Of a stretch of 64,000 nucleotides of DNA, positions 14,156 to 56,714 are shown piece after piece. A program made the position numbers and the translations under genes. The stretch spans positions 7,657 through 71,656 of the forward strand of contig JAQBYC010000002.1 in the NCBI GenBank assembly GCA_027623205.1. Reading direction: 5' to 3'. The stretch comes from Pseudomonadota bacterium (GTDB lineage: Bacteria > Pseudomonadota > Alphaproteobacteria > GCA-2731375). The notes under the pieces were generated by a model. It was not told the DNA's origin, searched no databases, and saw only the letters and a program-made list of their open reading frames with translations. The first letter of the stretch is position 1; the number at the start of each line of letters is the position of its first letter.

Positions 14156-18632
<4,477 letters not shown>

Positions 18633-19796
18633 CTATCCGTCCACCATGGCCCGGCCGCTATCCACCGCTACGAATTGCGCCTGCCCGAATAAAGGCGCGA
18701 ACAGATCACGGTCGGTACCACTCAGCCAAGCCTGGCCCCCCAGGGCCAGAATTTCCTCAAACAACGCGGCGCGCCGTTCACCATCCAGATGCGCGGTGAT
18801 TTCATCCAGCAACAAGATCGGCGCCGCACCGCGGCGGTCCGCTTCCGCCTTGGCATTCGCCAGCATCACGGCGATCAACAGGGCTTTTTGTTCACCCGTC
18901 GAACATTGCGCCGCCGGCATATCCTTCCCCAGGTGACGCACCGCCAAATCCGACCGATGTGGTCCGACGCTGGTGCTGCCCCTCCGGGCATCGCGCTGGC
19001 GGCTGCGCTGCAACAATTCGGCGAATCGGCTTTCCACTTCAACCGCCGGGTGATCTTCCAGCCAGCCTTCGATCTGACCTTCGATTGCCAGACCGGGCCT
19101 GGGAAAATACCCCGACGTTGCCGACAACAACCGCTGCAGCCGCGCCACGGCCTCGCGCCGGGCCGCTGCCACGGCAACGCCATCCGCCGCCATTCGAGCC
19201 TCCAAAGCGGCAAGCCACGTTGGGTCGCCGGCGGCACTGCGCAACAACGTAGCTCGCTCCCGCAAACTGCGTTCATAGGCACCGACCCGGCGGCCATGCT
19301 CGGGGTCAAGGCCCAGTACCAGCCGATCAAGAAAGCGCCGCCGGGACGATGGCCCCTCCAAAAACAGCCGGTCCATTTGCGGCGTCAGCCATTGCACACC
19401 GATCACCTGGGCCAAGCTGGCCGGGGCCATCGCCTGGCCATCCCGCCGGGCCACCCGCCGCGCCGCGCCGCGCTCGGTGGTCGCCAGGCTGCTGCCTAAT
19501 CTGATCAACCCGCCGGGGCCCTGGACAGTCGCCGCCACGGCCCAGCCTTCACCACCAGTGACCGCTTCGTCGGCATCTGAAGCGCTCTTTCGCAACACCT
19601 CCCCCAAACGGGCCCGGCGCAGGCCGCGGCCGGGCGAAAGAAACGACAACGCCTCCAACAAATTCGTCTTTCCGGCGCCATTGGCGCCGCTCAACACCAC
19701 GACCTGGGCCGACAAATCGAGAGCCAAGCTGCCGTAATTGCGGAAGTTGCTCAACCGCAAGCGCCGCACGGCACATGCGGACGGTGCTACCCTCAT
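18633..19796 (-). CDS. recF: DNA replication and repair protein RecF
   Basis: The RLRLSNFRNY N-terminus and Walker A GANGAGKTNLLEA. The internal start at 19796 fits the canonical length. The track ORF extends to 19943. Confidence 0.8.
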   Translation of the reverse strand: MRVAPSACAVRRLRLSNFRNYGSLALDLSAQVVVLSGANGAGKTNLLEALSFLSPGRGLRRARLGEVLRKSASDADEAVTGGEGWAVAATVQGPGGLIRLGSSLATTERGAARRVARRDGQAMAPASLAQVIGVQWLTPQMDRLFLEGPSSRRRFLDRLVLGLDPEHGRRVGAYERSLRERATLLRSAAGDPTWLAALEARMAADGVAVAAARREAVARLQRLLSATSGYFPRPGLAIEGQIEGWLEDHPAVEVESRFAELLQRSRQRDARRGSTSVGPHRSDLAVRHLGKDMPAAQCSTGEQKALLIAVMLANAKAEADRRGAAPILLLDEITAHLDGERRAALFEEILALGGQAWLSGTDRDLFAPLFGQAQFVAVDSGRAMVDG

Positions 19797-19939
19797 TACT
19801 GTTTCGGACGCCGTTGCCGCGAGCGACGCTGCCATTGACGCCGGTTCGTACGATGTAGCCGCGCTCATGCCATGTCCGCCCAGGGCCTTTATCCCCGAAC
19901 CGGATTTCATGTCATCGTGCACGGCCAGCAATAGCCCTC

Positions 19940-21055
19940 TCAAACCCGCATTGGCATCAGAACGTACAGCGCGCCCGGATCGGCGGCATCCCTTACGATG
20001 GTCGGTGAGGCGCCATCGGATAAATCAAAGCAGGCGTTTTCACCATCAATCTGACCCGTGATATCCAATAGATAGCGCGCGTTGAAACCAATTTCCAATA
20101 CGCCCTCGCCATTGAAATTGACCGGCACTTCGTCGGTTCCGCTGCCCTGTTCGGGACTGTTGGCGGATAGCACCACGGTACTGCCATTTACGGTCAGCTT
20201 CACCGCCCGCGATTTCTCTGAACTGATGGTCGCCACCCGATCAACGGCGGCGGCGAAGCTTTTACAATCAACCTCCATAAGCTTGTCATTTCCAGAAGGG
20301 ATCACCCTTTGGTAATCCGGGAACGTACCATCGATCAGTTTCGAGGTCAGAACGATATCGCCAAGGGAAAAGCGGATCTTGCTGTCGCTCAAGGCAATCT
20401 CGATCACGCCTTCGCCATCTTCGATCAGCTTATGCACTTCAAGAGCGGCTTTGCGCGGCATGATCACGCCGGGCATGCCACCGGCGCCTTCGGGCAGGGA
20501 AATTTCGATATGGGCCAAGCGGTGACCGTCGGTGGCCACGCCACGTAGCACCGGCGCATCCTCGGGCGCATGCAGATAGATGCCGTTCAGGTAATAGCGG
20601 GTCTCTTCGGTCGAAATGGCAAAGCGGGTCTTTTCGATCAGCCGGCGCAAATCAGCCGCCGGTAGGACAAAGTGATAGGGCAGATCGCCATCGGCCATGA
20701 CTGGAAAATCTTCCCGCGGCAGGCAGGACAGGGCGAATTTCGATCGTGCCGCCCGCACCACCAAACGGCCAGCTTCGGCCCCGTAGTCCAATTCAATCTG
20801 GGCTCCGTCGGGCAGCTTACGCACGATATCATGGAGAACATGCGCGGGCGCTGTAGTGCCGCCGGGCCGCCGTACCTCGCATGCCACGGTTTCCACAATG
20901 GCCAGATCCAAATCGGTTGCGGTCAGGCTCAATCCGGCTTCATTCGCGACCAATTGCACGTTGGACAAAATAGGGATCGTGTTACGCCGTTCAACGACAT
21001 TTTGGACATGCCCTAGAGCGCGCAAAAAGGCCGATCGTTCAATAGTCAGCTGCAT
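19940..21055 (-). CDS. dnaN: DNA polymerase III beta sliding clamp
   Basis: 371 aa. MQLTIERSAFLRAL...NVQLVA N-terminus and three-domain length. dnaN-recF-gyrB order. Confidence 0.9.
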   Translation of the reverse strand: MQLTIERSAFLRALGHVQNVVERRNTIPILSNVQLVANEAGLSLTATDLDLAIVETVACEVRRPGGTTAPAHVLHDIVRKLPDGAQIELDYGAEAGRLVVRAARSKFALSCLPREDFPVMADGDLPYHFVLPAADLRRLIEKTRFAISTEETRYYLNGIYLHAPEDAPVLRGVATDGHRLAHIEISLPEGAGGMPGVIMPRKAALEVHKLIEDGEGVIEIALSDSKIRFSLGDIVLTSKLIDGTFPDYQRVIPSGNDKLMEVDCKSFAAAVDRVATISSEKSRAVKLTVNGSTVVLSANSPEQGSGTDEVPVNFNGEGVLEIGFNARYLLDITGQIDGENACFDLSDGASPTIVRDAADPGALYVLMPMRV

Positions 21056-30798: not shown

Positions 30799-30960
30799 TT
30801 ATTCCGGCTCGGCTGTGTCATCCCAGGGGGAGGAATCGTCTTTTTCCTCTTTGGTCTTATCGGCTTTATCGGCCTTGGCCGCCGCCTTGGCAGCTTTCTT
30901 TTCGGCCTTGCGCCGATCGCGCTCCTGTCGTTCGAAATTGTAATTTGGTTTTCGGGCCAT
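30799..30960 (-). CDS. Small Lys/Glu-rich basic protein (hypothetical, 53 aa)
   Basis: MARKPNYNFERQERDRRKAEKKAAKAAAKADKADKTKEEKDDSSPWDDTAEPE. Strong charge periodicity. Lies between the carbamoylase gene and cspA. Identity unknown. Confidence 0.35.
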   Translation of the reverse strand: MARKPNYNFERQERDRRKAEKKAAKAAAKADKADKTKEEKDDSSPWDDTAEPE

Positions 30961-31093
30961 GCCTACCATTTGTGTTTGGCTGCCACCTGCGGACGCGCGG
31001 GCGCCGAAGGGCAATCCAGGTTCCTTGAATTCGCGAAGCCGAACATCTAGCTAATCGTTCCAGCCCGCCGATCACGCCGGGCCGCGGTCTCGC

Positions 31094-31151: not shown

Positions 31152-31361
31152 TCAGTCGAGCGCGACTAAATTCTCCGCCGCCGCCCGACCGTCCCGGCCT
31201 GCAACAAGCTCGAACTCCACCTTTTGCCCTTCACGCAGGCTTTGCAAGCCAGCGCGCTCAACGGCGGAAATATGCACGAAGATATCCTTAGAGCCGTCGC
31301 TGGGCTCGATAAATCCAAACCCCTTGGTCGGGTTGAACCACTTTACTGTTCCGGTCGCCAT
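31152..31361 (-). CDS. cspA: Cold-shock protein (CspA family)
   Basis: [18 protein letters not shown]...[11 protein letters not shown]1/RNP2 motifs. 69 aa from the internal ATG. Preceded by a ~355-nt 5' region. Confidence 0.85.
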
Positions 31362-31647
31362 TGCAAGTCCCTTCAATTCATAATTAGATCAGGGGCTCTC
31401 GATCTTAGCCGAGCCGCACCTTGTTGTTGATGCACGCGTTCCAAGCGTAGCTAGTTCGGATGCGCAAGCAGCGTAGCAAGATACGTCGAGGTGAGGTGCA
31501 ACGAGTGCACCTACATGGCACCGTCGGCGCGACGTTGCAAGCATAGATTTTGAAATTCGAAGACCGGTTACTGCGCCCGAAGACACGGCGGGCGGTCAGC
31601 GCCAAGCATCCAATCAGCATTCCTGACCGTCGCGGGCGGCGGGCGGC

Positions 31648-48443: not shown

Positions 48444-48862
48444 ACCTCACCTAACCCTGCGGCTTAAATTTCCCGGAAAACAGGGAAATATCTTACAAAT
48501 CCCTATTCCCCGCATCCCATGGCAATCGCCGCCAGTTTCGACTCGCCTACCATACCATGGTTTAACTCCGGGGTCGTAACTAATGTCTTAACGGCGATCT
48601 TCGCCGGAAATCAGCCACCACAACGCCACGCCATGACAGCGAACGACCAATGCGCAGAGAAAATCACCCCGATTTGGTACCACACGAAAATGCCGTTGGC
48701 TAGATTGTGCATGATTATTGTATCGAGTCGATCACAACTGTTGCATTTTTGCAGCGCTGCATTAGACCTATGAACACCCGCCCCGCCATGCTGAAGGCTG
48801 TTTACACACAGGGAAACGCGGTACCTAATATAGTCACAATCTTGAACTCAAGGAATGGCCCC

Positions 48863-50218
48863 ATGCCGCAGAACGAGCCGGTTGTCGACGATGCCGTCGC
48901 CCCGCGCGATAATCCAATGCTACAAGGTAATTTTGCGCCGGTGGATGTGGAAGCCACGGCCCATGACCTTATGGTCGAGGGCACAATTCCCAGCGAGTTG
49001 AATGGCGCGCTGCTGCGTGATGGACCGAACCCCATTGCCCCAGGTTCTGGTCACCATTGGTTCATGGGCGATGGCATGATCCATGGCATTACCATCCGCG
49101 ACGGCGGCGCCCAGGTCTATCGCAACCGCTGGATCCGGACGGCCCAGGTCGAAGCGCTGTTGGGCTTGCCGAAAGCGCCGGTCAGCCCGCACCAGCCCAT
49201 GCAGCAAGGCTCCGGCAGCGTCAATGTGATTGGCCATGGCGGCCGCATCCTGGCCTTGCCGGAGGTGGGCTTGCCATGGCAACTGGACGGCGAATTGAAC
49301 ACCATCGGCCAGCATGATTTCGACGGCGCCCTGCGCAGCAATATGACGGCGCATCCAAAGATCGATGCCGCGAACGGCGAACTGGTCTTTTTCGGCTATG
49401 ATTTTGGCCCCGTCAGCCTGCGCTACCACGTGGCCGACCAGGCCGGAAAACTGCTGCGCACGGTCGAGATCGAAAAGCCCATCCCGACCATGATGCATGA
49501 TTTTGGCGTCACGGCGACCCGGGTCATCTTCATGGATCTGCCGGTTGCCTTTAGTTTGGAAATGGCGCTAAGCGGCAAGGGGCTGCCCTTCCATTGGCGT
49601 GATGATATGCCGGCCCGTCTGGGCATTTTACCCCGTGCCGCCACCAAGGACGCGGTGCAATGGATAGAGATCGATCCCTGCTACGTCTACCATCCCCTGA
49701 ACGCCTATGACGATGGTGCCGAGATCATATTCGACGTGGTGCGTCATGACCGCACCTTCGTACAGGGGCAATTGGAAGGTGGCGGCGAGACGCGCCTGGA
49801 ACGCTGGACCATCGATCCCGCCAAGGAGCGGGTGCGCCGGGAGGCGATCAGCGGTATGGGCCAGGAATTCCCCCGGGTCGACCCGCGGGTGGAATGTCAT
49901 CCCCACCGTTATGGCTATACGGTGGGTTTCGGCATGGGCGTGGGCCCAGGCAATCTGCTGAAACATGACCTTGAACAACGCACCATGGCGGTGCACGACG
50001 TCGGCCCGGAGGGTGCGGCCAGCGAGGGCGTGTTCGTACCGAGCGGCGATGGCGAGGACGCGGGCTACGTGCTGTCGGTGGTCTATGACGGCCGCACCGG
50101 CAAAAGCCATCTACGGATCATCGATGCCCAGGATTTCGCCGCCCCGCCGGTGGCAAAGATCCACCTGCCGGTCCGCGTCCCCTTCGGCTTCCACGGCAAC
50201 TGGCTCCCCGCCGCCTGA
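48863..50218 (+). CDS. Carotenoid cleavage oxygenase family protein (apocarotenoid/lignostilbene dioxygenase-like)
   Basis: Four conserved His ligands are spread through the seven-bladed propeller (HHWFMGDGMIHG, HDFG, ...). Start at internal ATG (MPQNEP). Confidence 0.75.
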   Translation: MPQNEPVVDDAVAPRDNPMLQGNFAPVDVEATAHDLMVEGTIPSELNGALLRDGPNPIAPGSGHHWFMGDGMIHGITIRDGGAQVYRNRWIRTAQVEALLGLPKAPVSPHQPMQQGSGSVNVIGHGGRILALPEVGLPWQLDGELNTIGQHDFDGALRSNMTAHPKIDAANGELVFFGYDFGPVSLRYHVADQAGKLLRTVEIEKPIPTMMHDFGVTATRVIFMDLPVAFSLEMALSGKGLPFHWRDDMPARLGILPRAATKDAVQWIEIDPCYVYHPLNAYDDGAEIIFDVVRHDRTFVQGQLEGGGETRLERWTIDPAKERVRREAISGMGQEFPRVDPRVECHPHRYGYTVGFGMGVGPGNLLKHDLEQRTMAVHDVGPEGAASEGVFVPSGDGEDAGYVLSVVYDGRTGKSHLRIIDAQDFAAPPVAKIHLPVRVPFGFHGNWLPAA

Positions 50219-50345
50219 TCTGGCGGCATTTGACGCGGCATTAATGGGCGGCGGTGGCATTGCCCGGATTGTCTAACGGGATCGGGCCATTTATGATGCG
50301 CCGCACGAGATGCCGCGCCCACGCGGCGCTGGGGAGCCCACCTGA

Positions 50346-53249
50346 ATGACAATTGTAGATGCGGACGCGGCCCAAGACGCCGAACGGGTTGATCTGTCCC
50401 CGGCGGTATCGGACGAAATCAAATACACCACTTGCTACATGTGCGCCTGCCGCTGTGGCATCAAGGTACATCTGCGCGATGGCGAGTTGCGCTATATCGA
50501 GGGCAACCGCAATCATCCGGTCAATCGCGGCGTGCTTTGCGCCAAGGGCTCGGCCGGGATCATGCAGCACCATTCGCCGGCCCGTCTATCACGGCCGTTG
50601 TTGCGGGTCGGCGAGCGGGGCAGCGGTGAATTCCGCGCCATCAGTTGGGACGAGGCCATGAAGCTGGCGACGTCCTGGCTGGACCCGATCCGCAAAGAGG
50701 ACCCTCGCAAACTGGCCTTTTTCACCGGCCGGGATCAAAGCCAGGCCCTGACGGGATGGTGGGCCAGCCAGTTTGGTACCCCCAACCACGCGGCCCACGG
50801 CGGCTTTTGCTCGGTCAACATGGCGGCGGCGGGACTGTATTCGATCGGCGGTTCATTCTGGGAATTCGGCGAACCCGACTGGGAGCACTGCCGCTATTTC
50901 ATGATGTTCGGGGTGGCGGAAGACCACGATTCCAACCCGATCAAGACCGGCCTGGCAAAGCTGAAGGAGCGGGGCGCCAAGTATGTGGCCGTCAATCCGG
51001 TGCGCACGGGCTATGCCGCCATCGCCGATGAATGGCTGGCCGTTACACCCGGCAGCGACGGCTTGTTTGTCCTGGCGCTGGTGCATGAATTGCTGCGTGC
51101 GGGCAAAGTCGATCTGGATTATCTGGCCCGCTATACCAACGCGCCCTGGCTGGTGATCGAGGATCCCGGCGCCGATGATGATGGCCTGTTCGCCCGCGAT
51201 GGGGACGGCCATCCTTTGTGTTGGGACAGCGCCAGGGACGCTGCCGTCAACGCGCTGGAGACCGACATTGCCCCGTCCCTGAAGAACCGCGTCACCCTGC
51301 CCGATGGCCGCACCGCGGTGCCGGTGTTTCATCTGTTGGCCGAGCGTTATCTGGATGGCCAATACGGCCCCGACGCCGTGGCCGACCAGACCGGTATATC
51401 AGCGGAAACCATTCGGCGGATTGCGGGCGAACTGGCCCATGCCGCCTTCGCCGAGGAAGTGGTGCTGGACGTGCCATGGACCGATTGGGCCGGGCGCCGG
51501 CACGAACAGATGATCGGCCGCCCCGTGGCCATCCATGCCATGCGCGGCATCTCGGCCCACGCCAACGGCTTTCAAACCTGCCGCGGCCTGCATCTGTTGC
51601 AGATGCTGTTGGGCAGCATCGATGTACCGGGGGGCTTCCGCTACAAGCCACCGTTTCCCAAACCCGCGCCGCCGGGTCTAAAGCCCGCCGGCAAGCCCGG
51701 TGATGTGGTGCCCGGTCAACCTCTGGGCGGGCCGCCCCTGGGTTTTCCCCAAGGGCCGGACGACTTATTGGTGGAAGCCAATGGCGCCCCTTGCCGTATC
51801 GATCATGCTTTCTCGTGGGAGGCGCCCATGTCGGCCCACGGCATGATGCATACGGTGATCGCCAACGCCTGGCGCGGCGATCCCTATCCCATCGATACTT
51901 TGTTCATGTACATGGCCAACATGGCCTGGAATTCGTCCATGAACACCACCGATGTCATGACCATGCTGACGGACAAGGATCCCGGCAGCGGTGACTACAA
52001 GATCCCGCATATTATCTATTCGGATGCCTTTTATTCCGAGACGGTGGCCTATGCGGATCTGATCCTGCCCGACACCACCTATCTGGAGCGTTGGGACTGT
52101 GTCTCGATGCTGGACCGTCCGATCTCCAGCGCCGACGGGCCGGCGGACGCGATCCGCCAGCCGGTGCTGACACCCAATCGTGACGTCCGCCCGTTTCAGG
52201 ATGTGCTGTTGGACCTGGGCGTCCGGCTGGGCCTGCCGGGTCTGCTGGACGAGACCGGCGCGGCGCGCTATCCCGGCGGCTATCCGGACTATCTGGTGAA
52301 CCACGAACGCAGCCCCGGCGTCGGTTCGCTGGCGGGCTGGCGCGGTGCCGGCGGCGACAGTCACGGCCGGGGCGCGGTCAACCCGGACCAGCTTGACCGT
52401 TATGTGGAAAATGAATGTTTCTGGCGCGATGAACTGGCGCCCGAGCAGCGCTATTTCAAACATGCCAACAAGGACTATCTGGAATATGCCGTGAAGATGG
52501 GGTTCATCGGCGCGGCGCAACCCGTGGTCCTGCAATTGTACACCGAGGCGCTGCAGCGCTTTCGCCTGGCCGCGCGCGGCGTGGGCGAAACGCAACCGCC
52601 CGAACAGCAGCGCAGGCGGATCGAGAGGTTTTTCGACCCCCTGCCCATCTGGTACCCGCCCAGCGCCGTGGACGGCACCGCGGCGGAGGATTATCCCCTG
52701 CACGCGATCAGCCAGCGGCCGGCGGCCATGTATCATTCCTGGGGCTCGCAGAATGCCTGGCTGCGGCAGATCCATACGGCCAATCGGCTGTATATTTCCG
52801 AAACAGTGGCGCGTCAGCAGGGCATCGAGGACGATGGCTGGGCCTATCTGGAAAGCCGTCATGGCCGCATCAAGGCCCAGGTGCGGGTCATGGCCGGGGT
52901 CAACGACCACACGGTCTGGACCTGGAATGCCATCGGCAAGCGCGCCGGTGCGTGGAACCTGGCAGCGGATGCACCGGAAGCCGAAAAAGGCTTTCTTTTG
53001 AACCACCTGATCGAGGATCTGTTGCCCCCCGATGCCAACGGCGAACGCATGCCCAACGCCGATCCCATCACCGGCCAGGCCGCCTGGTTCGATTTACGGG
53101 TGCGCATATCGAAGGCGCCGGCGGGCGCAGAGGCGTCGGAGCCTGCGTTCGCGGCGCTGCCATTGCCGCCCGGCGTCGCAACCCGTCCAACCATGCTGCG
53201 CTATGGCGCCAAAATGAAGCGCGGTAAGTTCGGAGGCAGCAAATCATGA
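50346..53249 (+). CDS. soeA: Molybdopterin oxidoreductase catalytic subunit without Tat signal, SoeA-like (sulfite dehydrogenase, quinone)
   Basis: 967 aa. N-terminal [4Fe-4S] motif C-x2-C-x3-C...C (CYMCACRCG...VLCAKG). MopB domains. No twin-arginine leader. Followed by FeS and membrane subunits of SoeB/SoeC size. Confidence 0.6.
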   Translation: MTIVDADAAQDAERVDLSPAVSDEIKYTTCYMCACRCGIKVHLRDGELRYIEGNRNHPVNRGVLCAKGSAGIMQHHSPARLSRPLLRVGERGSGEFRAISWDEAMKLATSWLDPIRKEDPRKLAFFTGRDQSQALTGWWASQFGTPNHAAHGGFCSVNMAAAGLYSIGGSFWEFGEPDWEHCRYFMMFGVAEDHDSNPIKTGLAKLKERGAKYVAVNPVRTGYAAIADEWLAVTPGSDGLFVLALVHELLRAGKVDLDYLARYTNAPWLVIEDPGADDDGLFARDGDGHPLCWDSARDAAVNALETDIAPSLKNRVTLPDGRTAVPVFHLLAERYLDGQYGPDAVADQTGISAETIRRIAGELAHAAFAEEVVLDVPWTDWAGRRHEQMIGRPVAIHAMRGISAHANGFQTCRGLHLLQMLLGSIDVPGGFRYKPPFPKPAPPGLKPAGKPGDVVPGQPLGGPPLGFPQGPDDLLVEANGAPCRIDHAFSWEAPMSAHGMMHTVIANAWRGDPYPIDTLFMYMANMAWNSSMNTTDVMTMLTDKDPGSGDYKIPHIIYSDAFYSETVAYADLILPDTTYLERWDCVSMLDRPISSADGPADAIRQPVLTPNRDVRPFQDVLLDLGVRLGLPGLLDETGAARYPGGYPDYLVNHERSPGVGSLAGWRGAGGDSHGRGAVNPDQLDRYVENECFWRDELAPEQRYFKHANKDYLEYAVKMGFIGAAQPVVLQLYTEALQRFRLAARGVGETQPPEQQRRRIERFFDPLPIWYPPSAVDGTAAEDYPLHAISQRPAAMYHSWGSQNAWLRQIHTANRLYISETVARQQGIEDDGWAYLESRHGRIKAQVRVMAGVNDHTVWTWNAIGKRAGAWNLAADAPEAEKGFLLNHLIEDLLPPDANGERMPNADPITGQAAWFDLRVRISKAPAGAEASEPAFAALPLPPGVATRPTMLRYGAKMKRGKFGGSKS

Positions 53250-53977
53250 CCTCATTGCCACGGGAAGCACCGGCAAAACGCCTTGGCTTGGTGATCGACC
53301 TGGATACCTGCGTCGGCTGTCATGCCTGCGCCGTGAGTTGCAAGGAGTGGAACACCACCGGCTATCACGCGCCCCTGCCCGATAGCGACCCCTATGGCAA
53401 GGACGTGGACGGGGTCTGGCTGAACCGCGTGCATGGCTATGAAACCAGTTCGGCGGCAGGCGCGCGCACGGTCTATTTCCCGCGCTCCTGCCTGCATTGC
53501 GAAGAGGCGCCCTGTGTCACCGTCTGTCCGACGGGGGCGTCCTATAAACGTACAGAGGATGGCATCGTCCTGGTCGATGAGGACATTTGTATCGGCTGCA
53601 AGCTGTGTTCCTGGGCCTGTCCCTATGGCGCCCGGGAATTCGATCGCGACGGCGGCGTGATGAAAAAGTGCACCTTGTGCATCGACCGCATCTACAACGA
53701 AAATCTGGAAGAGATCGATCGACAGCCGGCCTGTGTCAACGCCTGCCCGGCCAAGGCCCGGCATTTCGGTGACTTCAACGATCCGGATTCAATTGTCTCC
53801 GAGTTGACCGCCGCCCGTGGCGGAGTGGAGCTGTTGCCGGAAATGGGCCTGAAGCCGACCAACCGGTATCTGCCGCCCCGGCCTCGCGCCACCATGGGCG
53901 ATGGCGCCAGCCTGAAGGATGCGCCCGCCGCCGACGGCGGCTTCCTGGGCTGGATCGATCGGGCATTGTCCCGCTAG
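53246..53977 (+). CDS. soeB: 4Fe-4S ferredoxin-type subunit (DmsB family), SoeB-like
   Basis: Four cysteine clusters (CVGCHACAVSC, CLHCEEAPC, CIGCKLCSWAC, CTLC...C). 243 aa. 4-bp overlap with the A subunit. Confidence 0.6.
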   Translation: MTSLPREAPAKRLGLVIDLDTCVGCHACAVSCKEWNTTGYHAPLPDSDPYGKDVDGVWLNRVHGYETSSAAGARTVYFPRSCLHCEEAPCVTVCPTGASYKRTEDGIVLVDEDICIGCKLCSWACPYGAREFDRDGGVMKKCTLCIDRIYNENLEEIDRQPACVNACPAKARHFGDFNDPDSIVSELTAARGGVELLPEMGLKPTNRYLPPRPRATMGDGASLKDAPAADGGFLGWIDRALSR

Positions 53978-54014
53978 CCGCGGCATTAGAGTGCATTGAG
54001 AGTACAGACTAAGC

Positions 54015-54980
54015 ATGCAACCCGCCTATTCCGTCATTTTCCTGACCACCGCCACGGGCGCCGGTTACGGCCTGCTGGCCCTGCTGGGTGTTCTCCGCGC
54101 CATGGATAGCCTGCCGGACGAGCGCGCCTTTGGCCTGCTCGCCCTGGGTCTAGCCATGGCTTTGATCAGCGCCGGGCTGTTGGCCTCGGCGGCCCATCTC
54201 GGCCGCCCGGAGCGGGCCTGGCGGGCCTTCAGCCAATGGCGCTCCTCCTGGCTGTCCCGGGAAGGGGTTCTGGCCGTGGCCGGCTATGGCCCGGCAGCGC
54301 TGTTCGCCTTTGCCTGGTTAATTCTGCAACGCAACGACGGCCTTTGGCCCCTGGCCGGTCTGGCAGCGGCGGTGCTGTCCGTCGCCACCGTCTACAGCAC
54401 CGCCATGATCTATCGTTCCCTGGCCGCCATTCCCCGCTGGCATCATCCCCTGGTGCCATGGGTCTATCTGATCCTGGCGCTGGCCACGGGCGCCCTGTGG
54501 CTCAACGCGGTGCTGGCGTCCTTGGTCGGCGACCATGGTGGCCATGCCCTGGTGCGGGCGATTTGCTTCGCCGCCCTGGCCGCCGCCTGGTTGTTGAAGA
54601 TCGCCTATTGGCGCGCCATCGACGGCGCCACCGGCGAAAGCAGCACGGCCACCGCGATCGGGTTGGGCGGCCTGGACGGCCTGGGCCCGGTGCGCCCCCT
54701 GGATCCGCCCCATGTGCAGGACAATTATCTGCTGAAGGAAATGGGTTTCGCCATCGCCCGCAAGCACGCCGCCAAGCTGCGCCGCCTGACCCATCTGATG
54801 GCCTTCCTGGTGCCTCTGGTCTTGGTGGTGGTTCAGTCCGTCGCTTCCGGCCCCGTCAGCCTGTTGGCGGCGGCCCTGGCAGCCGTAACCGTCAGCTTCG
54901 GCGTCGTCGTTGAACGCTGGCTGTTCTTCGCCGAAGCCCAGCACAAGGTAATGCTGTACTACGGCACGGAGCGCATCTGA
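54015..54980 (+). CDS. soeC: DmsC/NrfD-like membrane anchor subunit, SoeC-like
   Basis: 321 aa. About 8 hydrophobic helices. Directly downstream of the FeS subunit. Confidence 0.55.
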   Translation: MQPAYSVIFLTTATGAGYGLLALLGVLRAMDSLPDERAFGLLALGLAMALISAGLLASAAHLGRPERAWRAFSQWRSSWLSREGVLAVAGYGPAALFAFAWLILQRNDGLWPLAGLAAAVLSVATVYSTAMIYRSLAAIPRWHHPLVPWVYLILALATGALWLNAVLASLVGDHGGHALVRAICFAALAAAWLLKIAYWRAIDGATGESSTATAIGLGGLDGLGPVRPLDPPHVQDNYLLKEMGFAIARKHAAKLRRLTHLMAFLVPLVLVVVQSVASGPVSLLAAALAAVTVSFGVVVERWLFFAEAQHKVMLYYGTERI

Positions 54981-55043
54981 CTCATTTCCGAACCGGCCGG
55001 AGCTGCCGGCGGGGCGGGCAACTCGGAACGCTTTTGCAATGGG

Positions 55044-56714
55044 TCAGAACAAGCCGGTGATCTGACCGTTTTCGTCCAGGCCGATGGTTTCCGCCGCCGG
55101 GCGGCTGGGCAGACCGGGCATGGTCATGATGTCGCCGCAGACCACGACCAGAAATTCGGCGCCCGCCGCCAGGCGGATTTCCCGGATCGAGACGACATGG
55201 CCCGAGGGCGCGCCCTTGCGGTTCGGATCGGTGGAAAAACTGTATTGCGTCTTGGCCACACAAATCGGCAGATGGCCATAGCCCTGATCCTGCAATTGCT
55301 GAAAACGCTCGCTCACCAGGCGGTCGGCGCTGATATCATCGGCGCCGTATATGCGCTGGGCGACGGTACGCATCTTCTCCCACAACGGCATCTCGTCGCC
55401 ATACAAGGTGTTGAAATCGGATTCACCGGCCTGCGCCAGCTCCGCCACGCGGAGCGCCAGTGCCTCGGCCCCAGCCCCGCCGTCGGACCAGTGGCTGCAA
55501 ACGAAAGCGTCCACATCAAAGCCCTTGCAGTAATCGGTAATCGCCGCCATTTCGTCCTTCGTGTCGGCATCGAAACGGTTGATGGCGACGACGGCACGCA
55601 TGCCGAATTGGCCAATATTTTCCAGATGCCGGCCCAGATTCTCCAGACCCCGCTGCAAGGCGGCGACATCTTCCCTGCCCAGGTCGTCCCGGGCCACGCC
55701 ACCATGCATCTTCAGGGCCCGGACCGTGGCCACCAGCACCACCGCGTCCGGCCGCAAGCCCGACTTGCGGCATTTGATATTGAAGAACTTCTCCGCCCCC
55801 AGGTCGGCACCGAAGCCGGCTTCGGTGACGACAAAATCGGCCATCTTCAAGGCTGCCCTGGTGGCGATCACGGAATTGCAGCCATGGGCGATGTTGGCGA
55901 AGGGTCCCCCGTGGATAAAGGCAGGATTGTTTTCCAGGGTTTGCGCCAGATTGGGCTGGATCGCGTCCTTCAACAACGCCGCCATGGCGCCGTCGGCATT
56001 TAGGTCCCGCGCCGTGACCAGGTCCCGGTCACGATTTTGCGCCACCACCATATTGCCCAGGCGGCGGCGTAGATCGTCGCTGTCCGAGGCCAGACAGAAC
56101 ACCGCCATCACTTCCGAAGCCACGGTAATGTCAAAGCCATCCTGGCGGGGAAAGCCGTTGGCCACGCCGCCCAGATTGGCCACGATGGAACGCAGGGCCC
56201 GGTCGTTCATGTCGACGACCCGGCGCCAGGAAATACGCCGGGCATCAATATCCAGCTTGTTGCCCCAGTAAATATGGTTGTCCAGCATGGCCGCCAGCAG
56301 GTTGTTGGCCGCGCCAATGGCATGGAAATCACCGGTGAAATGCAGGTTGATATCCTCCATGGGCACAACCTGGGCATAACCGCCGCCCGCCGCCCCGCCC
56401 TTGGTCCCGAAACACGGACCCAGGCTGGGTTCCCGCAAACAGATCGCAGTCTGCTTGCCGATCCGGTTCAGGGCATCGCCCAAGCCGACGGTGGTCGTCG
56501 TCTTGCCCTCGCCGGCCGGTGTCGGCGTGATGGCCGTGACCAGGATCAGTTTGCCCGTGGGCCGGTCCCCCAGAGAGGCTAGATAGTCCAGGTCCACCTT
56601 GGCCTTATCAGGGCCGTAGCGGTACAGATGCGTGGCGGGGATATTCAGTTTTTCGCCAATCTGTTCGATGGGCAAGGCGGTGGCTTGACGGGCGATTTCA
56701 ATATCTGGCTGCAT
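55044..56714 (-). CDS. fhs: Formate--tetrahydrofolate ligase
   Basis: 556 aa. [16 protein letters not shown]-loop and the conserved FTHFS signature regions. Confidence 0.9.

Follow-up and report, generated by a model that had tools for sequence, protein, structure and literature searches.

The sulfite:quinone oxidoreductase SoeABC has been known since 2013, and its reference complexes are those of Allochromatium vinosum (Alvin_2491-2489, ADC63403-1; SoeA ADC63403.1), Aquifex aeolicus (aq_1234/1232/1231) and Ruegeria pomeroyi (SPO3559-3557), with the KEGG orthologues K21307-K21309. The catalytic subunit belongs to the bSreA/SoeA clade of MopB enzymes, which is defined as cytoplasmic and Cys-ligated (PMC10100899), and the anchor subunit SoeC is present in approximately 100 alphaproteobacterial species (PMC8076601). 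Here we describe a soeABC operon at positions 50346-54980 of a 64,000-nucleotide stretch of alphaproteobacterial DNA (contig JAQBYC010000002.1; hereafter the window). Judged from the sequence and its relatives, this operon is very likely to be a self-contained unit for a sulfite:quinone oxidoreductase which is bound to the membrane and oriented towards the cytoplasm. It is an ordinary, already known operon of alphaproteobacteria.

Three adjacent genes on the forward strand were found in the order catalytic subunit, iron-sulfur (FeS) subunit and membrane anchor. The first, soeA (50346-53249), encodes a cytoplasmic catalytic subunit of 967 amino acids (aa) and 106 kDa for a molybdenum bis-pyranopterin guanine dinucleotide (Mo-bisPGD) cofactor. 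It is followed by soeB (53246-53977), encoding a ferredoxin subunit of 243 aa and 26 kDa with four [4Fe-4S] clusters, and by soeC (54015-54980), encoding a presumed quinone-binding anchor of the DmsC/NrfD family (321 aa, 34 kDa) with eight predicted helices in an N-in/C-in arrangement. The stop codon of soeA and the start codon of soeB overlap in the sequence ATGA, a GGAGG is located 9 nt 5' of the soeB ATG, and soeB and soeC are separated by 37 nt. The first-pass annotation had placed three reading frames of 967, 243 and 321 aa between 50346 and 54980, and both the coordinates and the sizes were recovered exactly. The window complex resembles the SoeABC references in its A-B-C order, in a MopB-type SoeA with an FeS motif and a Cys ligand, in a four-cluster SoeB and in an eight-helix anchor. 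The lack of twin-arginine translocation (Tat) signals, the cytoplasmic orientation and the masses of the three subunits are likewise those of SoeABC.

The Pfam domains Molybdop_Fe4S4 (PF04879), Molybdopterin (PF00384) and Molydop_binding (PF01568) were all observed in SoeA, and the N-terminal FeS cysteines are C30, C33, C37 and C65. In an alignment with PsrA of the Thermus polysulfide reductase (PDB 2vpw), Cys155 of SoeA lines up with Cys173, which we take to be the Mo ligand in that structure, and on the basis of this alignment Cys155 is presumed to be the Mo ligand of the window enzyme. Ligation by cysteine is also given for SoeA in the published MopB survey (PMC10100899). The Mo-ligand motif GGFCSVNM and at least 300 positions were found to be invariant from the window SoeA out to betaproteobacteria.

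No twin arginine was found in the first 60 residues of SoeA or SoeB. Furthermore, an in-frame TGA immediately precedes the soeA ATG and therefore, a revision of the start codon cannot add a Tat leader without a frameshift. The N-terminal FeS motif and the missing Tat leader had both been noted in the first-pass annotation and are borne out here, while the case that it considered damaging, a leader emerging after the start codon is revised, is excluded by this TGA. We also surveyed 338 full-length SoeA homologues for an RRxF-type motif preceding the FeS motif. Such a motif was observed in 16 of them, all in distant clusters at 38-43% identity, namely P0134, the Desulfitobacteriaceae cluster P0127/P0272 and a Saccharolobus protein of 1452 aa. 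No twin-arginine motif was found in the remaining approximately 322 full-length members of the clade. The nearest full-length homologues retrieved from outside that clade (P0134, P0272/P0127 and P0182; 38-43% identity), among them the Saccharolobus protein, all have twin-arginine leaders; they are sister enzymes of SoeA, periplasmic or extracellular, and uncharacterised.

SoeB was matched by Fer4_11 and related Pfam families, and its sixteen cysteines are distributed over four ferredoxin-type groups. It is 82% identical to the SoeB of L001, one of the two closest related loci (the other being L005), and 66% identical to that of Azospirillum. In SoeC, Pfam DmsC was matched at E 1.5e-17 with a weak NrfD match, and eight hydrophobic segments were found. 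Lysine and arginine number 18 in the N-terminus, loops 2-3, 4-5 and 6-7 and the C-terminus versus 3 in the other loops, and the means over 25 SoeC homologues are 18.1 for the N-terminal side and 1.7 for the other side. From this charge bias both termini are predicted to be cytoplasmic, which is the reverse of PsrC. The bias agrees with a published proposal that SoeC is inverted relative to PsrC, and the same description of the family gives SoeC as haem-free (PMC8076601). The identity of SoeC is 76% to L001 and 35% to Paraburkholderia.

The nearest solved structure is that of PsrABC from Thermus thermophilus (PDB 2vpw), with which the window complex has its three-subunit architecture in common; no SoeABC structure was found in the PDB and no sequence match to SoeC was detectable there. 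SoeA matches PsrA at E 2e-40 with the Mo-ligand cysteines aligned, and PsrB (2vpw_B) is the best solved relative of SoeB at E 1.5e-34. However, the window SoeA is approximately 200 residues longer than PsrA, and PsrABC is Tat-exported and periplasmic with both termini of PsrC on the P-side (PMC8076601), whereas the window complex has no Tat signal and the opposite charge bias in its anchor. The DmsABC, YnfEFGH and TtrABC complexes are built on the same complex iron-sulfur molybdoenzyme design, and the window anchor matches Pfam DmsC. Unlike these periplasmic reductases, the window complex has no Tat leader and its catalytic subunit scores far below the DmsA and TtrA cutoffs.

The curated-family test consisted of scoring SoeA against the NCBIfam models, a library which holds no SoeA model. 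The PhsA model (NF012032) gave 213 bits against a cutoff of 694, with a good match over residues 28-265 only. Lower scores were obtained with the models for DmsA (TIGR02166; 133 bits, cutoff 777.7), TtrA (NF011567; 108 bits, cutoff 1750) and ArrA (80 bits, cutoff 1600). The window protein therefore misses widely the cutoff of every curated MopB family, SoeA being the family for which there is no model.

Thousands of SoeA homologues were found in a large protein database. The closest are from Rhodospirillaceae metagenome-assembled genomes at 88-90% identity and many others are near 70%. Relatives at 90% are found in the assemblies GCA_018667855.1 and GCA_018668705.1. Two of the closest (P0001, 90%; P0003, 88%) and many of the matches at about 70% have the IMG (JGI) name "sulfite dehydrogenase (quinone) subunit SoeA". 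An exhaustive search of representatives clustered at 50% identity gave 13,118 MopB relatives at E <=0.001, most of them fragments or proteins without a name, and very few were both full-length and close to the query. This agrees with the report that the bSreA/SoeA family nearly vanishes on 50% clustering (PMC10100899). The main 50% representative, the betaproteobacterial protein P0121, is 57% identical to the window SoeA and belongs to a cluster that is also named SoeA in IMG. Identity to the window SoeA is 67.5% for Azospirillum brasilense, 63% over the full length for the homologue of the roseobacter Tritonibacter multivorans, and 52% for Paraburkholderia.

In a neighbour-joining tree, the window protein and those of L001 and L005 were found inside a tight alphaproteobacterial SoeA radiation with short branches. 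Loci linked to genes of sulfonate or sulfite metabolism (the markers described below) occur on all sides of them, and no separate subclade of stand-alone soeABC copies was observed. The first-pass annotation had proposed a cytoplasm-facing complex of the SoeABC type in place of a periplasmic Dms, Ttr or Psr reductase. This proposal is upheld by the missed curated cutoffs, the SoeA name of the homologues at 88-90% identity, the lack of a Tat signal, the charge bias of SoeC and the position in the tree.

Several points weigh against the assignment. The tree was made by neighbour-joining without support values. The tie to the enzymes of A. vinosum, A. aeolicus and R. pomeroyi is indirect and runs through database names, literature and gene context, and their SoeA proteins were absent among the best 120 matches in searches seeded with a betaproteobacterial or a Rhodobacterales copy. 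The single-sequence AF2 model of SoeC is too poor to be used (pLDDT 52.7, pTM 0.31). Sulfonate, sox, dsr and hdr genes were not found by Pfam among the approximately 45 reading frames of the window. In addition, published accounts of activity in the clade do not fully agree, as its Aquifex member was first described as a sulfur reductase (PMC10100899).

This last point bears on a reductive role, in which the complex would be a bSre-like, cytoplasm-facing reductase of sulfur, polysulfide or tetrathionate with quinol as the donor. The published MopB phylogeny does merge bacterial SreA and SoeA in one lineage (PMC10100899), and the nearest solved structure is a polysulfide reductase. However, the sulfite-generating genes xsc and pta and taurine regulators recur in the clusters of the orthologues at 63-73% identity, and reductive or anaerobic modules do not. 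The region around the window operon resembles an ordinary heterotrophic alphaproteobacterial chromosome, and the Psr and Phs family cutoffs are missed widely. We therefore consider a reductive role to be extremely unlikely and retain sulfite oxidation as the reading of the operon.

A genome scan gave at least 80 further loci at 62-74% identity which are almost all alphaproteobacterial, and the gene context was compared over a sample of 87 related loci. The survey covered five markers within 10 kb, namely sulfoacetaldehyde acetyltransferase (Xsc), phosphate acetyltransferase (Pta), a TauR-like regulator, alanine dehydrogenase (Ald) and TauE of the sulfite-exporter family, and the loci termed stand-alone here could have other sulfur genes nearby. 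At least one marker was found in 28 of the 87 loci. The TauR-like MocR regulator was the most frequent of the five (12 loci), followed by TauE (11), alanine dehydrogenase (7), Xsc (6) and phosphate acetyltransferase (5). Marker-linked loci at 63-73% identity are common in the alphaproteobacterial SoeA radiation. When the count was restricted to the 46 loci flanked by at least 8 kb on each side, 18 were marker-linked and 28 (61%) were stand-alone like the window operon. The A-B-C cassette was intact in all nine related loci that were viewed gene by gene. Its flanks vary, and even the relatives at 84-90% identity have other flanking genes than the window operon. Clustering of the neighbours gave no conserved fourth gene, such as a chaperone, since besides soeB and soeC no neighbour occurs in more than approximately 12 of the 87 loci.

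In R. pomeroyi, soeABC (SPO3559-3557) adjoins pta and is near tauR (PMC4334477). Unlike this locus and that of Azospirillum, where the operon is near xsc, the window operon is located between a gene for an RPE65-family oxygenase (48707-50218) on its upstream side and fhs, encoding formate-tetrahydrofolate ligase (55044-56714, reverse strand), 3' of soeC. The two flanks named in the first-pass annotation, a carotenoid-cleavage oxygenase and fhs, were thus both found by Pfam. Its statement that no sulfur-metabolism genes stand beside soeABC was also correct over the whole 64 kb, as none was found by Pfam and a tblastn search with Xsc, Pta, TauE, the TauR-like regulator and Ald gave no match in the window. 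It had further drawn attention to the missing sulfur neighbours. These are no anomaly, because 28 of the 46 fully flanked relatives are without the five markers and the stand-alone arrangement is the majority state.

The missing neighbours could be explained if stand-alone copies, including that of the window, had come to use a different substrate, for example an organosulfur compound or some other oxyanion. The lack of sulfur genes in 64 kb would fit such a shift; the NCBI curated library has no SoeA model, so that nothing certifies the function, and no biochemically characterised member of the alphaproteobacterial clade was found in the literature. However, the window protein is nested on short branches among sulfonate-linked copies with no stand-alone subclade, and the GGFCSVNM motif and the other invariant positions extend out to betaproteobacteria. 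Moreover, the 61% of fully flanked relatives that are equally stand-alone are expected of a hub enzyme fed by several pathways. A changed substrate is accordingly judged highly unlikely. The first-pass annotation had allowed for another substrate, and nothing in the data points to one; neither a reductive role nor a changed substrate is favoured by any of the results. A broader proposal is that the stand-alone soeABC copies of this Rhodospirillales lineage stand outside sulfonate and lithotrophic sulfur catabolism. They would then use a different substrate, or would run constitutively to remove endogenous sulfite while conserving energy, and would move as a promoter-to-stop cassette. We give this proposal very little credence.

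With sulfite oxidation retained, we infer the substrate, the direction of electron flow and the physiological role of the window complex from its family. Intracellular sulfite would be oxidised to sulfate at the Mo-bisPGD of SoeA, where Cys155 is the presumed Mo ligand. The electrons would pass from the [4Fe-4S] cluster of SoeA through the four clusters of SoeB, giving five FeS clusters in all, and reach the respiratory chain via a quinone site that SoeC provides at the cytoplasmic face of the membrane. The usual sources of sulfite in alphaproteobacteria are the desulfonation of organosulfonates (taurine, isethionate and sulfoacetate via Xsc; sulfolactate; cysteate) and the oxidation of sulfur or persulfide. 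No sulfite-producing gene is present in the window and therefore, the source of sulfite would be encoded elsewhere in the genome.

Several arrangements observed in the related loci are described here in their own right. In A. brasilense (L006), a small hypothetical gene stands between soeABC and the downstream xsc, and upstream are a pta-like gene, a tripartite tricarboxylate transporter (TTT), an aldehyde dehydrogenase gene and a CoA-ligase-like pair. In this cluster (plasmid NZ_CP059453.1, 135-15840) and in that of T. multivorans (L088, 1674-17449), soeABC is found together with an IclR regulator, a TctCBA transporter, an aldehyde dehydrogenase and genes for a CoA-ligase or CoA-transferase; of the two, it is the Azospirillum cluster that has xsc. 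Both look like a sulfoacetate-type pathway, or another C2/C3-sulfonate pathway, that imports its substrate via the tripartite tricarboxylate transporter.

A second arrangement is a module of TauE and the uncharacterised alphaproteobacterial membrane protein Alph_Pro_TM (PF09608), which precedes soeABC in approximately 12 loci (L003 5646-7852, L004 6412-7837, L028, L032, L033, L037, L042, L044, L045, L053, L061 and L069). In some of these loci, a universal stress protein is encoded directly 5' of soeA. Alph_Pro_TM may have a role in sulfite handling. A third arrangement was observed in the 12 loci with the TauR-like regulator, a MocR-type GntR/aminotransferase protein which is encoded divergently upstream of soeA (L043 6631-8382 on the reverse strand, L038, L052, L063, L068, L071, L084 and others) and occurs with alanine dehydrogenase in 7 of the 12. 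The arrangement points to a taurine response of soeABC in Hyphomicrobiales and in genomes of the Aestuariivirga type.

The nucleotide similarity between the window, L001 and L005 starts at a promoter-like site (from 50265) and ends exactly at the stop codon of soeC (54980), and the surrounding genes are unrelated. With these boundaries, the operon behaves as an independent module that includes its promoter. The site is a candidate sigma-70-like promoter on the forward strand, TTGTCT-17-TATGAT (50269-50297), which is a consensus match only and the sole promoter-like match in 50000-55300. Counterparts of both hexamers were found in L001 and L005 (84-90% identity), whose upstream genes differ. 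A Shine-Dalgarno-like GGGGAG (50332-50337, forward strand) is located approximately 8 nt before the soeA ATG, and the stretch GGGAGCCCACCTGAATGAC at this site is kept in both relatives. Downstream of soeC, no convincing intrinsic terminator was found, and the 63-nt convergent spacer to fhs folds with z = -1.27. The sequence comparison suggests that soeABC moved as a single block, and its transcription from the candidate promoter probably does not depend on the adjoining genes. Horizontal acquisition was also considered and set aside; the G+C content at third codon positions (GC3) of soeABC is only mildly raised, at 0.76-0.83 versus 0.71 +/- 0.03 for the other genes of the window.

An inverted repeat GCGCCGC/GCGGCGC was observed between the promoter-like site and the ribosome-binding site (50298-50304 and 50323-50329, forward strand), with arms of 7 nt and a spacer of 18 nt. 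It includes an inner hairpin, GCCGCG-CCCA-CGCGGC, at approximately 50312-50327. The repeat had been reported about 60 bp upstream of soeA; its existence was confirmed, and its position was corrected to 17-48 nt upstream of the ATG. Its location would suit an operator or a regulatory RNA hairpin controlling soeABC. Of the repeat, the two closest relatives, L001 and L005, keep only a counterpart of the right arm and the inner hairpin, altered in both stem and loop (GCCGC-CCGGGT-GCGGC), which is weak evidence at that short distance. However, the left arm is absent from both even at 84-90% protein identity, and nothing comparable was found in Nisaea or Thalassobaculum at approximately 70% identity. 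At least one such pair of arms was present in 24 of 100 dinucleotide shuffles of the window, which is the level of chance, and the 271-nt region that holds the repeat has four more of comparable size. The RNA fold of the repeat region is no better than that of shuffled sequences (z = -0.27), and Rfam and tRNA scans of the window gave no match. A regulatory element is therefore very unlikely, and the repeat was rejected as one on conservation, chance expectation and folding.

The remainder of the window was found by Pfam, over approximately 45 reading frames, to be a core chromosomal region which includes dnaN-recF-gyrB, glyQS, ppdK, lysA, argH, ftsY, mlaA/C and a peptide ABC transporter. The genes dnaN, recF and gyrB (16167-21055, reverse strand) are grouped as they are near the replication origin in many bacteria, and the gene upstream of dnaN is of the DHDPS family and is not dnaA. 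A second molybdoenzyme is encoded at 63-1733 on the forward strand, which is a Mo-binding subunit of the xanthine dehydrogenase family (MoCoBD_1/2). Its match begins at profile position 73 and therefore, the true start of the gene probably lies 5' of this frame and may be outside the window on the left. Furthermore, a cold-shock-protein-like reading frame of 74 aa (31152-31376) and a highly basic one of 71 aa (30799-31014), both on the reverse strand, were observed in an otherwise empty 1-kb spacer.

The NCBI pipeline gives proteins of this kind generic labels such as "molybdopterin oxidoreductase family protein" and "DmsC/YnfH family anchor", and sometimes labels them wrongly as formate dehydrogenase or tetrathionate reductase. 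The importance of the present assignment goes little beyond correct annotation. The neighbourhood survey indicates that missing sulfur neighbours should not be counted as evidence for a new function of soeABC. For the organism itself, the soeABC label means that electrons from cytoplasmic sulfite can probably enter its quinone pool.

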